Origin: a virus
Lineage: Duplodnaviria > Heunggongvirae > Uroviricota > Caudoviricetes
Virus record (IMG/VR): IMGVR_UViG_2541047915_000006
Direction: 5' to 3' (one strand)
DNA: 19,841 nt
The notes under the pieces were generated by a model that was not told the DNA's origin, did not search any database, and was given only the letters and a program-made list of their open reading frames with translations. Positions 12,426-16,328 of this stretch are shown piece by piece (within the stretch, counting starts at the first letter, position 1; every line of letters starts with the position of its first letter). The translations under genes and the position numbers were made by a program.

Positions 12426-13123
12426 AAAACATCGCCGCACAGATGGTTAATTTTGACCGTGAGCAGATGCGTCGGATCGCCAACAACATGCCGGAACAGT
12501 ACGACGAAAAGCCGCAGGTACAGCAGGTAGCGCAGATCATCAACGGTGTGTTCAGCCAGTTACTGGCAACTTTCCCGGCGAGTCTGGCTAACCGTGACCA
12601 GAACGAACTGAACGAAATCCGCCGCCAGTGGGTTCTGGCTTTCCGGGAAAACGGGATCACCACAATGGAACAGGTTAACGCAGGAATGCGCGTAGCCCGT
12701 CGGCAGAATCGACCATTTCTGCCATCACCCGGGCAGTTTGTTGCATGGTGCCGGGAAGAAGCATCCGTTATCGCCGGACTGCCAAACGTCAGCGAGCTGG
12801 TTGATATGGTTTACGAGTATTGCCGGAAGCGAGGCCTGTATCCGGATGCAGAGTCTTATCCGTGGAAATCGAACGCGCACTACTGGCTGGTTACCAACCT
12901 GTACCAGAACATGCGGGCCAATGCGCTGACTGACGCGGAATTACGACGCAAGGCTGCCGATGAACTGACCTGTATGACAGCGCGAATTAACCGTGGTGAG
13001 ACGATACCTGAACCAGTAAAACAACTTCCTGTCATGGGCGGCAGACCTCTAAATCGTGTTCAGGCGCTGGCGAAGATCGCAGAAATTAAAGCTAAGTTAG
13101 GACTGAAAGGAGCAAGTGTATGA
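12422..13123 (+). CDS. P: Replication protein P (DnaB helicase loader, 233 aa)
   Basis: Near-identical to lambda P (MKNIAAQMVNFDREQMRRIANNMPEQYDEKPQVQQVAQIINGVFSQLLATFPAS...). ATGA overlap with the O stop. Confidence 0.95.
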   Translation: MKNIAAQMVNFDREQMRRIANNMPEQYDEKPQVQQVAQIINGVFSQLLATFPASLANRDQNELNEIRRQWVLAFRENGITTMEQVNAGMRVARRQNRPFLPSPGQFVAWCREEASVIAGLPNVSELVDMVYEYCRKRGLYPDAESYPWKSNAHYWLVTNLYQNMRANALTDAELRRKAADELTCMTARINRGETIPEPVKQLPVMGGRPLNRVQALAKIAEIKAKLGLKGASV

Positions 13124-13410
13124 CGGGCAAAGAGGCAATTATTCATTACCTGGGGACGCATAATAGCTTCTGTGCGCCGGACGTTGCCGCGCTAACAGGC
13201 GCAACAGTAACCAGCATAAATCAGGCCGCGGCTAAAATGGCACGGGCAGGTCTTCTGGTTATCGAAGGTAAGGTCTGGCGAACGGTGTATTACCGGTTTG
13301 CTACCAAGGAAGAACGGGAAGGAAAGATGAGCACGAACCTGATTTTTAAGGAGTGTCGCCAGAGTGCCACGATGAAACGGATATTGGCGGTATATGGAGT
13401 TAAAAGATGA
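13120..13410 (+). CDS. ren: Ren (96 aa)
   Basis: Near-identical to lambda Ren (MTGKEAIIHYLGTHNSFCAPDVAALTGATVTSINQAAAKMARAGLLVIEGKVWRTVYYRFAT...). ATGA overlap with P. Confidence 0.9.
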   Translation: MTGKEAIIHYLGTHNSFCAPDVAALTGATVTSINQAAAKMARAGLLVIEGKVWRTVYYRFATKEEREGKMSTNLIFKECRQSATMKRILAVYGVKR

Positions 13411-13434
13411 CCATCTACATCACTGAGCTAATAA

Positions 13435-13468
13435 CAGGCCTGCAGGTAATCGCAGGCCTTTTTATTTG
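13435..13468 (+). terminator. tR2-like intrinsic terminator
   Basis: CAGGCCTGC-aggtaatc-GCAGGCCT hairpin followed by TTTTTATTT, between ren and ninB. Confidence 0.6.
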
Positions 13469-13483
13469 GGGGAGAGGGAAGTC

Positions 13484-13924
13484 ATGAAAAAACTAACCTT
13501 TGAAATTCGATCTCCGGCACATCAGCAAAACGCTATTCACGCAGTACAGCAAATCCTTCCAGACCCAACCAAACCAATCGTAGTAACCATTCAGGAACGC
13601 AACCGCAGCTTAGACCAAAACAGGAAGCTATGGGCCTGCTTAGGTGACGTCTCTCGTCAGGTTGAATGGCATGGTCGCTGGCTGGATGCAGAAAGCTGGA
13701 AGTGTGTGTTTACCGCAGCATTAAAGCAGCAGGATGTTGTTCCTAACCTTGCCGGGAATGGCTTTGTGGTAATAGGCCAGTCAACCAGCAGGATGCGTGT
13801 AAGCGAATTTGCGGAGCTATTAGAGCTTATACAGGCATTCGGTACAGAGCGTGGCGTTAAGTGGTCAGACGAAGCGCGACTGGCTCTCGAATGGAAAGCG
13901 CGATGGGGAGATCGGGCTGCATGA
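13484..13924 (+). CDS. ninB: NinB (Orf family recombination mediator, 146 aa)
   Basis: MKKLTFEIRSPAHQQNAIHAVQQILPDPTKPIVVTIQERNRSLDQNRKLWACLGDV... matches lambda NinB. GGGGGAGAGGGAAG SD precedes the ATG at 13484; the ORF track starts upstream at 13466. Confidence 0.9.
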   Translation: MKKLTFEIRSPAHQQNAIHAVQQILPDPTKPIVVTIQERNRSLDQNRKLWACLGDVSRQVEWHGRWLDAESWKCVFTAALKQQDVVPNLAGNGFVVIGQSTSRMRVSEFAELLELIQAFGTERGVKWSDEARLALEWKARWGDRAA

Positions 13925-14448
13925 CTATCAAATCAAATACGCCAGCACACGACAAGGACTGCTGGCAAACGCCGCTTTGGCTTTTTGATGCACTGGATAT
14001 TGAGTTTGGATTCTGGCTGGATTCGGCAGCGAGCGACAAAAATGCTCTGTGCGCTCACTGGCTAACTGAGGACGACGACGCGCTCAATTCTGAGTGGGTA
14101 AGCCACGGTGCAATCTGGAATAACCCACCGTACAGCAATATCAGGCCGTGGGTGGAAAAAGCCGCTGAGCAGTGTATACAACAGCGACAGACGGTAGTGA
14201 TGCTTGTGCCAGAGGATATGTCTGTCGGATGGTTCAGCAAGGCTCTGGAGAGTGTTGACGAAGTTCGTATTATCACTGATGGACGGATTAATTTTATCGA
14301 ACCATCGACAGGGCTGGAGAAGAAGGGAAACAGCAAAGGCTCCATGCTGCTGATTTGGCGACCGTTCATCAGTCCTCGACGGATGTTTACTACCGTATCC
14401 AAAGCGGCATTGATGGCGATCGGGCAGGGCGTCAGGAGGGCTGCATGA
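13921..14448 (+). CDS. Phage DNA N6-adenine methyltransferase (Dam-like, 175 aa)
   Basis: NPPY catalytic motif ([10 protein letters not shown]) and upstream CWQTP motif. ATG overlaps the ninB stop (ATGA); the ORF-track start at 13861 lies inside ninB. No adjacent endonuclease gene. Confidence 0.75.
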
Positions 14449-14621
14449 GACGACAGCGACGAAGCATCACCGACATAATCTGCGAAAACTGCAAATACCT
14501 TCCAACGAAACGCTCCAGAAATAAACGCAAGCTAATCCCAAAAGAATCTGACGTAAAAACCTTCAATTACACAGCCCACCTGTGGGATATCCGGTGGCTA
14601 AGATATCGTGCGAGGAAATGA
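14445..14621 (+). CDS. ninE: NinE (58 aa)
   Basis: [58 protein letters not shown] matches lambda/DLP12 NinE. ATGA overlap with the methyltransferase stop. Confidence 0.8.
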
Positions 14622-14965
14622 CAATGGATTATTCACAGTTAAGTGATTTTGAAATTAACAGAATGGTAGGAGACATAATTTTTAAAGGCCTTTGGGCAAG
14701 TAAACCGGAAACATCAGGGAATAACACCAACAAATGGTATTACGGAAATGCTGATACAACTTTTGAGCCATTAAATCATTTGCCTGACTACTGCAATGAT
14801 CCGAGCGCTTCATGGCCGATTATTGAGAAATACAGGATTTCTATCTTAGACCAGTTAACTGAATGGTGTGTGGATGCAAAAGGCGTAAGCCCAATATTTG
14901 ATACCAGACCTCTCCGCGCCGCCATGATTGTCTTTCTCCTGATGCAGGAGGCCAATAATGCTTAG
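14618..14965 (+). CDS. Hypothetical nin-region protein (115 aa), DLP12 YbcN-like position
   Basis: ORF with ATG overlapping the ninE stop (ATGA). No confident family assignment. Confidence 0.6.
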
Positions 14966-15152
14966 CCCATCTCAATCCCTTCAATACCTGAAAGAAAGCA
15001 TAGAGCGGGCTTCAATGTGCACAGAGTGGATTCTATCTAGGTTTAGCGCATACAGAAGATTGCCGGTAAAGGGCATGCCAAGCAAGTCGATGCTGCATAT
15101 GCAAAAGAATGCGCGCTGGAAGGTATGGCGAGAACACAGGTTATGTGGCTGA
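14958..15152 (+). CDS. Chimeric ORF: NinF-like N-terminus ([16 protein letters not shown]) fused out of frame to ybcO-derived sequence (64 aa)
   Basis: The first roughly 18 residues match lambda NinF; the remainder has no resemblance and is the +1 frame of a ybcO-like 3' end. Probably not a functional NinF. Confidence 0.35.
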
Positions 15153-15175
15153 AAGAGGGGGTTATTAAGGCGTGA
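15047..15175 (+). pseudogene. ybcO-like 3' remnant (last 42 codons, no start codon)
   Basis: Hand translation of the frame ending at TGA 15173..15175 gives [42 protein letters not shown], whose tail matches my recall of the DLP12 YbcO C-terminus. An in-frame stop lies at 15044..15046. Confidence 0.4.
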
Positions 15176-15534
15176 ATACCTACAGCATCACATTACCCTG
15201 GCCTCCGAGCAATAATCGCTATTACCGCCATAATCGCGGGCGCACGCACGTCAGCGCAGAGGGGCAGGCATACCGCGATAACGTCGCCCGAATCATTAAA
15301 AACGCAATGCTGGATATCGGCCTGGCTATGCCTGTGAAAATCCGCATTGAGTGCCACATGCCGGATCGCCGTCGCCGTGACCTGGATAATCTGCAAAAAG
15401 CCGCTTTTGACGCACTCACTAAAGCAGGTTTCTGGCTGGATGATGCTCAGGTCGTTGATTACCGCGTTGTGAAGATGCCTGTTACCAAAGGTGGGAGGCT
15501 GGAACTGACCATCACCGAAATGGGGAATGAATGA
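15172..15534 (+). CDS. rusA: RusA Holliday-junction resolvase (120 aa)
   Basis: [47 protein letters not shown]... matches DLP12 RusA. GTG start overlapping the upstream stop (GTGA). Confidence 0.9.
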
Positions 15535-15671
15535 TGTTTGAGTTTAATATGGCAGAACTTCTTCGCCACCGCTGGGGGCGTCTGCGCTTATATCGTTTCC
15601 TCGGTTCTGTTTTGACCGATTACCGAATACTGAAGAATTACGCCAAAACCCTGACAGGAACAGGAGTATGA
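15531..15671 (+). CDS. ylcG: YlcG-like small protein (46 aa)
   Basis: [46 protein letters not shown], hand-translated. ATG overlaps the rusA stop (ATGA). Matches my recall of DLP12 YlcG. Confidence 0.6.
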
Positions 15672-15756
15672 AGTCAGAGATAACAATCAACTAATACTGT
15701 TTTGTTGATTTTTGCTTGTAATTGGCGTTCTGGTCTGATTTTTGTGGAGTAAGTTG

Positions 15757-16140
15757 ATGCGTGATATTCAGATGGTTCTTGAGCGTTGGGGTGCGTGGGC
15801 GGCTAATAATCATGAAGATGTGACCTGGTCGTCCATTGCCGCCGGTTTTAAGGGATTAATTCCTTCAAAAGTAAAATCTCGCCCGCAATGTTGTGACGAT
15901 GACGCGATGATCATTTGCGGGTGCATGGCCCGTCTGAAAAAGAACAACAGCGATTTACACGATTTATTAGTAGATTATTATGTATGTGGTATGACATTCA
16001 TGTCACTGGCAAGTAAGCATTGCTGCTCGGATGGTTATATCGGGAAAAGGTTACAGAAGGCTGAGGGCATAATTGAAGGGATGTTAATGGCATTAGATAT
16101 CCGGTTAGATATGGATATCGTTGCTAATAATTCTAATTGA
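15757..16140 (+). CDS. Q: Late-gene antiterminator Q (phage 82/DLP12 QuuD type, 127 aa)
   Basis: [60 protein letters not shown]... matches DLP12 QuuD. Cys-rich zinc-binding region. The ORF-track start at 15742 is a TTG. Confidence 0.85.
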
Positions 16141-16159
16141 TATGCAATTGTTTACTAAA

Positions 16160-16191
16160 AGTTATTAAAAATGGGGCGTGGAAACGCCCCC
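16160..16191 (-). terminator. Candidate intrinsic terminator for nmpC (minus strand)
   Basis: GGGGCGT-ggaaa-CGCCCC hairpin (16173..16191). T-rich only on the minus strand (ATTTTTAATAACTTTT). Confidence 0.35.
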
Positions 16192-16277
16192 AAAATAAAG
16201 GGTAATATATAACAGAAGGTTTATATAGTAAGAAGCAAGGTAGTGCTTCTAAAGGAAGTGGCTTGAGGGCTCCACTT

Positions 16278-16318
16278 ATATGTTGCGGAGGCAAAGCCTC
16301 CCGCAACATATCTTTTTC
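16278..16318 (+). terminator. Intrinsic terminator downstream of Q (tR'-like, about 178 nt after the Q stop)
   Basis: Long hairpin ATATGTTGCGGAGGC-aaa-GCCTCCCGCAACATAT followed by CTTTTTCG on the plus strand. Confidence 0.55.
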
Positions 16319-16328
16319 GTAAGTCAGA

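Follow-up and report, generated by a model that had tools for sequence, protein, structure and literature searches.

A recombination scar, probably formed in two steps, among the nin genes of a lambdoid Escherichia coli prophage, and a recurrent deletion endpoint within it

In the stretch of viral DNA analyzed here (19,841 nucleotides, IMG/VR record IMGVR_UViG_2541047915_000006; hereafter, the window), an open reading frame (ORF) that begins like ninF stands directly in front of rusA, followed in another frame by what looks like the end of ybcO. This raises the question of how the segment at 14958-15175 was assembled and whether any part of it does anything. Our answer, which we regard as very probable, is that the segment is an inert recombination scar in the nin region, laid down in two steps, and that its 64-codon ORF is accidental. 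One bond inside the scar is the feature that may complicate this picture.

The window derives from a lambdoid phage or prophage. Over 12440-17680, its identity to Escherichia phage ev207 is 100%, and positions 14580-15540 are 100% identical in strains CFT073, Nissle 1917, and UTI89 as well as in many further strains. The genes near the scar run in the order P, ren, ninB, an N6-adenine methyltransferase gene, ninE, ninX, the scar, rusA, ylcG, and quuD; beyond quuD lie an ompC-like porin gene on the minus strand and then essD and rrrD. Some variation was seen elsewhere in this setting. The ompC/nmpC-like porin gene downstream of quuD (16329-17471, minus strand) is intact in the window and in CFT073, whereas the K-12 DLP12 copy is split by IS5. 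An IS3-family element lies between ren and ninB in CFT073 (L001 610-1823, at about window 13410-13466) and is absent from the window and ev207. A 1,253-bp segment of the window is missing from 35 fetched related loci, where 5377 is joined to 6628 at a clean junction with a 3-nt overlap; this absence is a common indel or mosaic variant of the early-left region. The features on which the argument turns are listed here.

14582-14965, plus strand: ninX (DUF2591), intact (Pfam PF10765, 61.5 bits), annotated as NinX in CFT073 and ev207
14946-14951, plus strand: AGGAGG, read from the sequence as the Shine-Dalgarno of the ninF' start, 6 nt 5' of the ATG
14958-15152, plus strand: chimeric ORF of 64 codons with an ATG start, composed of ninF', filler, and out-of-frame ybcO sequence
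14958-15020, plus strand: P22-type ninF stub, codons 1-21 (ungapped alignment, blastn, PHROG 672)
15021-15085, unstranded: filler of 65 bp and of a third origin, matching neither ninF nor ybcO
15068-15069, unstranded: site S, the deletion breakpoint between ...GATTGCCGGTA and AAGGGCATGCC..., to which at least 15 distinct left partners are joined exactly
15086-15092, unstranded: second joint (filler to ybcO), crossover within GTCGATG (three-way ungapped alignment of the window, AU6Stx1, and A4 ybcO)
15086-15175, plus strand: ybcO (DUF1364) stub, comprising the final 29 codons and the stop, which overlaps the GTG of rusA; no start codon
15172-15534, plus strand: rusA, intact (Pfam PF05866, 82 bits), the first gene of the DLP12-type right-arm module

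On the left side, ungapped alignment to lambda ninF and to the intact ninF of E. coli Z142-1 showed that ninF homology stops at 15020, after codon 21 (Cys), and blastn against an intact ninX-ninF pair covered 14911-15020 at 92.7% identity. Past codon 21, the ORF at 14958-15152 reads TEWILSRF..., which is unrelated to NinF. A sequence-only reading of the window had described an ORF that starts like lambda NinF and then diverges; the NinF start and its abrupt end are real, but the allele is P22/HK-type (91% identity to P22 over 14940-15020). Lambda ninF, whose product has the N-terminus VIDQNRSYEQESVERALTC (also given as VIDQNRSY), was ruled out as the parent, with only 24 of 29 nt matching, and the P22-type allele fits. 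The stub resembles P22/lambda-type NinF (PHROG 672) in its first 21 codons, its Shine-Dalgarno, and the overlap of its start with the 3' end of ninX, which measures 8 nt as in P22-type phages. It differs in that residues 22-57, with the CxxC...CxxC cysteines, are replaced by unrelated sequence. The PHROG 672 profile aligned to ORF residues 1-22 only (E 3.6e-4), compared with residues 1-57 of intact Z142-1 NinF (E 2.5e-35), so that the 64-aa ORF does not qualify as a full-length NinF (~57 aa), and of the P22-type cysteine core (C21, C24 ... C34, C37, C38), it keeps C21 only.

On the right side, the earlier suggestion that another frame encodes the C-terminus of YbcO, without a start codon and with an in-frame stop at 15044, was confirmed. 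The stub at 15086-15175 corresponds to YbcO residues 68-96, ybcO-frame stops lie upstream of it at 15038-15040 and 15044-15046, and the RefSeq/PGAP annotation of CFT073 marks exactly 15086-15175 as a pseudogene (“DUF1364, incomplete, missing N-terminus”). The remnant had been placed from 15047 onward, and this start needs correction: 15047-15085 is filler, and ybcO homology begins at 15086, with 100% identity to the intact ybcO of strain A4 and 97% to that of K-12 DLP12. Pfam PF07102 aligned to the stub over profile positions 62-92 of 92 with 17.7 bits against a cutoff of 29.9; the stub, therefore, falls below the gathering score of the YbcO/DUF1364 family (a His-Me finger nuclease) and does not cover its N-terminal cysteine/histidine core. 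Past 15086, homology to A4 runs on at 99.9% for 2.6 kb. Homology to the DLP12-type rusA-ylcG-quuD-porin arm likewise starts exactly at 15086, so the view of this point as the left boundary of a right-arm module stands. The arm resembles the ybcO-rusA-ylcG-quuD module of DLP12 and phage 82 in being 97% identical to DLP12 over 15086-16370, in encoding a RusA protein identical to that of K-12, and in its GTGA stop/start overlap; unlike DLP12, it carries only residues 68-96 of YbcO and an undisrupted porin gene. Both ninF and ybcO are, as had been proposed, destroyed, each being reduced to a non-functional stub.

Aligning the segment separately with the two genes mapped the crossovers to 15020 and to 15086-15092. 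At the second joint, the window tracks the sequence found in Stx1 phages up to 15092 and tracks ybcO from 15086, and CGATG (15088-15092) is a 5-bp microhomology present in both parents. As read from these alignments, the overlap is the mark left by illegitimate recombination at a short homology. Intact versions were also found in relatives: E. coli Z142-1 has the order ninX-ninF-orf-DUF1364-rusA, and A4 and K-12 have ybcN-ninE-ybcO-rusA. Because Z142-1 has the intact arrangement, finding ninF beside DUF1364 and rusA does not by itself signify that two phage types have collided. The homology blocks are long, exact, and abruptly ended and are not chance resemblances. With base-mapped and abrupt homology ends, intact parents elsewhere, and microhomology at the second joint, the segment has the properties of a lambdoid mosaic joint, and its interpretation as an illegitimate or short-homology recombination scar was upheld.

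The 65 bp between the two stubs has its own history. It did not align as a diverged piece of ninF, ninG, or ybcO, and no frame of it has protein relatives beyond this locus. Together with the last 29 nt of the ninF stub, it forms a block (14992-15092) that matches the phages AU6Stx1 (15941-16041) and SH2026Stx1 at 88%. Both Stx1 phages have a lambda-type ninF' that passes into this filler at the identical codon, with a different right flank and with no ybcO there. In AU6Stx1, the filler sequence continues for more than 400 bp, leading into several hundred base pairs of AT-rich moron DNA and a 590-aa gene on the other strand. This moron (740-3510 of L007, our AU6Stx1 locus) sits between ninF' and an HNH-endonuclease gene, where it replaces the rest of ninF. 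No 3' ninF remnant was found in it, its 590-aa ORF has no Pfam match, and TTTCTA occurs in it seven times in a row near 3313-3352.

Among 118 IMG/VR loci that contain the filler, about 80 are of the window type and 37 have the lambda-like left flank of the Stx1 type; no other context was found in phage records or GTDB genomes. The window and AU6Stx1 share derived ninF substitutions at 15012 and 15016, so the joint between ninF' and the filler arose once. Copies of the Stx1 type also tell something about the reading frame. In 33 of the 37 (L004 2476-2500 and the Type B loci), the lambda-type ninF' start (GTGATTGACCAAAAT) carries a CAA-to-TAA change at codon 4, the CAA being kept in the other 4; the frame through the filler is, therefore, not conserved as coding sequence.

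From this observed anatomy, with its two joints, we infer the order of events on grounds of parsimony. An older first step would have cut ninF off behind codon 21 and fused it to foreign DNA, in a joint that would survive today in Stx1-converting phages. In a second step, an illegitimate event via CGATG would have connected this foreign DNA, at its positions 65-72, with ybcO at codon 68, leaving 65 bp of filler and bringing in the DLP12-type ybcO'-rusA-ylcG-quuD-porin arm. Later homologous exchange in ninF/ninX may then have given the joint its P22-type left flank. Work by Hendrix and Juhala reportedly describes novel joints of this kind in HK97, HK022, lambda, and P22, arising by illegitimate recombination and then spreading through flanking homology. 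The scar is like such joints in its abrupt in-gene transitions, its little or absent homology at the joints, its intact parents, and its apparent spread by flanking exchange. It is unlike most surviving lambdoid joints, which lie at gene borders, in that it falls inside two genes, with two joints stacked 65 bp apart; because of this position, it leaves pseudogene stubs.

The scar is also widespread. Copies at 98-100% identity occur in 27 phage genome records (ev207, ev017, 2G7b, mEp332, and PhiR57_1 among them), and 584 of the 5,426 complete E. coli genomes contain the scar. Given such a wide distribution, ninF and ybcO appear to be dispensable for the phages that carry it.

The filler may nevertheless not be inert DNA, since one site in it behaves clearly non-randomly. 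In defective prophages (loci L127-L136, L138, L165-L169, and L172), at least 15 different deletions end on the right at one and the same bond, that between A15068 and A15069 (site S). Protein matches gave fusions of lambda P (codons 1-33 or 1-47) and of 434 Cro (codons 1-61), all immediately before KGMPSKS, and at the DNA level these have ...TA joined to AAGGGCATGCC, between A15068 and A15069. Pattern scans of IMG/VR and metagenomes, together with another protein search that used the frame of ybcO, extended the list of partners to window positions 2984 and 7352, two points in an Ea22-like gene, N, a cro-like gene, the start of the methyltransferase gene, and int-proximal DNA. The junction with the Ea22-like gene was found in the complete genomes AST198 and JKHS016; two others, cro/P47 joined to S and the int-proximal junction of L166, had no match among the 5,426 complete genomes. 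All of the junctions are direct-orientation deletions, those whose left end maps within the window measure up to ~12 kb, and no inversions were found among them. The deletions remove the immunity, replication, and nin genes and keep rusA, Q, the porin gene, and lysis. In Nissle 1917 and CFT073, site S is intact. A single rightward deletion has S as its left endpoint, joined to 15622.

Could site S be an active element rather than a passive endpoint? It may be a genuine site-specific hot spot of breakage and rejoining, either a pseudo-site (or pseudo-end) recognized in cis by a TA-crossover recombinase or transposase or a strong, nucleotide-precise replication pause with template switching. The scar would then drive prophage-inactivating deletions and provide a built-in route for disarming and domesticating a widespread E. 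coli prophage family. We consider this a possible but rather doubtful reading. It would account for the use of one phosphodiester by at least 15 left partners, for the restriction to deletions, and for the single use of each neighboring junction (~15043, 15095, 15100, 15101, and 15110). The dinucleotide TA stands at the crossover in all 11 partners with known native sequence, followed by C in 8 of them; an identical central dinucleotide is what would be expected of a serine-recombinase-type site. Homology at the junctions is mostly exactly 2 nt (2 nt in nine, 3 nt in two, and 4 nt in two), and these lengths suit a fixed 2-bp requirement with chance extension better than homology-driven joining. 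As for binding arms, a weak imperfect dyad (GATTGCC-N7-GGCATGC) is seen by eye; no recombinase was identified, and the partner sites share no motif beyond TA(C).

Several observations weigh against an active site. Neither the window nor the Stx1 moron contains an inverted-repeat partner for S, no transposase was found, and no insertion sequence sits at S in the deleted forms. The 21-mer at S is unique to this locus in GTDB genomes, without copies in other species. Having neither an inverted repeat nor a transposase nor multiple copies, S does not have the makings of an insertion sequence or transposon end, and the filler was likewise rejected as an IS end or MITE for want of an inverted partner and of copies in other species. 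To our knowledge, nothing in the ends of IS1, IS5, and other insertion sequences resembles the filler convincingly. The Stx1-type copy of S had no alternative partner in 36 contigs. Some of the events may also be derived from each other, as the fusion at P codon 33 may come from that at P codon 47 by CAGGTA/CAGTTA slippage, and selection for prophage inactivation shapes the sample of deletions observed.

The behavior of other sites also argues against a property peculiar to S. TA sites at 12520, 2984, 12189/90, 15143, 15622, 14891, 1570, and 12226 recur as deletion endpoints with different partners. The endpoint at P codon 33 occurs with S, with 14891, and, about 3 nt to the right, in a third deletion (12523 joined to 12901, L163). 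Site 2984 is joined both to S and to 12190, and 12189/90 is used from both sides. Site 15622, within ylcG, is joined both to S and to 15143, with rusA lost in both deletions. Such recurrence points to TA-based deletion as a wider process among these prophages.

Other sources of a fixed endpoint were also weighed as explanations of S. An insertion at S was rejected as the source of the deletions, as no element was present at S in 81 IMG/VR loci. The only insertions nearby are an IS100 (IS21-family) end adjoining window-equivalent 15070/71, inside the filler, in L162 (4111-4224), and an IS5 end after CTAGG at ~15041, in the filler of one IMG/VR contig. Judged by eye, the break position and retained sequences do not fit CRISPR self-targeting, Chi/RecBCD, or Xer/dif-like recombination, nor do they fit secondary att sites of lambda Int or the cutting preferences of RusA (before CC) or RuvC. 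A literature search found nothing relevant. Deletion hot spots with a fixed endpoint are known from Int-promoted deletions at lambda att, IS-promoted adjacent deletions, and replication-arrest (Ter) sites. Site S is like these in having one nucleotide-fixed end, another end that varies by up to ~12 kb, and minimal homology; it is unlike them in that S is not an att site, the deleted forms carry no insertion sequence there, nothing resembling Ter or a hairpin was found, and the crossover dinucleotide is always TA.

Whatever the nature of S, the ORF that runs through it is, on our reading, an accidental reading frame without a function of its own. The strong Shine-Dalgarno and ATG of ninF are kept, and for this reason, the ORF is probably translated. 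Its stop (15150-15152) lies 19 nt 5' of the rusA GTG (15172), just upstream of a GAGGGGG Shine-Dalgarno (15155-15161), and translation would at most leave ribosomes 19 nt short of where rusA begins. It is conceivable that the scar has been retained for this very effect, as a translational bridge that carries ribosomes from ninX to rusA, replaces the lost ybcO-rusA GTGA coupling, and prevents polarity on rusA and Q. The geometry, including the overlap of ninX with ninF', would fit such a role, and in-frame fusions of P or cro to the ORF frame recur in deleted prophages. However, the fusion set was found by protein search and is, therefore, biased toward in-frame cases, and in many deletions anchored at S the fused DNA is in another frame or does not code for protein. 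By chance alone, 44 codons in a row past the joint would be open with a probability of about 12%, and N antitermination, which suppresses polarity in lambda, would do so here anyway. Selection for a bridge, hence, seems improbable to us.

That the joint gave rise to a new small protein with a function is far less probable still. Its best arguments are the translation signals, the ORF's being open in 22 of 23 haplotypes (99 of 101 loci, the exception being one deletion type), and the label “protein ninF” given by some pipelines. The openness carries little weight, as fewer than one stop would be expected by chance from ~18 substitutions. A conserved protein family over the full 64 aa, which would have overturned the scar interpretation, was sought in Pfam, NCBIfam, PHROG 672, and a cluster search and was not found. 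Neither Pfam nor NCBIfam gave a match, and in a search of 5.8 billion protein clusters, 20 clusters matched, all from E. coli. Those with a ninF' start are 76-100% identical to the ORF and near-identical over the shared part, with C-termini that vary freely through frameshifts, deletions, and fusions. One matched protein (P0016) ends in DVYKRQ..., read as a translated Nextera mosaic-end adapter, and looks like a sequencing artifact.

The remaining evidence also speaks against a selected protein. All NinF cysteines but one are lost, a stop precedes the same filler frame in most Stx1-type copies, and PGAP does not call the ORF in CFT073. Polymorphisms in the ORF frame (101 loci, 23 haplotypes) comprise 14 nonsynonymous and 4 synonymous changes; this ratio is the neutral prediction, and the polymorphism looks neutral. 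Nor did we find signs of a function at the level of RNA or regulation: Rfam gave no hit to the scar at E≤1, no promoter or terminator was found inside 14958-15175, and the folding z-scores (0.10 and 0.30) indicate no stable fold.

The sequence-only reading had proposed that a lambda-type ninF and a DLP12/82-type ybcO were joined in one illegitimate crossover. Although right about both stubs and about DLP12 homology starting at the scar, this proposal is hardly tenable, as two joints are stacked there around 65 bp that match neither gene, those 65 bp are contiguous with ninF' in Stx1 phages without ybcO at that place, and the ninF allele is P22-type.

The two-step scar is of a known kind, a textbook mosaic joint, and is largely ordinary; the new details are its two-joint history and the filler that it has in common with Stx1 phages. 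It offers a dated, two-layer example of how the nin region is rebuilt, and its anatomy explains why annotations of the segment disagree between “protein ninF,” “hypothetical,” and a DUF1364 pseudogene. The breakpoint at S is the one feature of the scar that deserves follow-up. If it is true that a single bond seeds many independent prophage-inactivating deletions, this locus would be a tractable natural system, and S could be used to study RecA-independent deletion with 2-bp homology in E. coli and the way in which prophages become cryptic.
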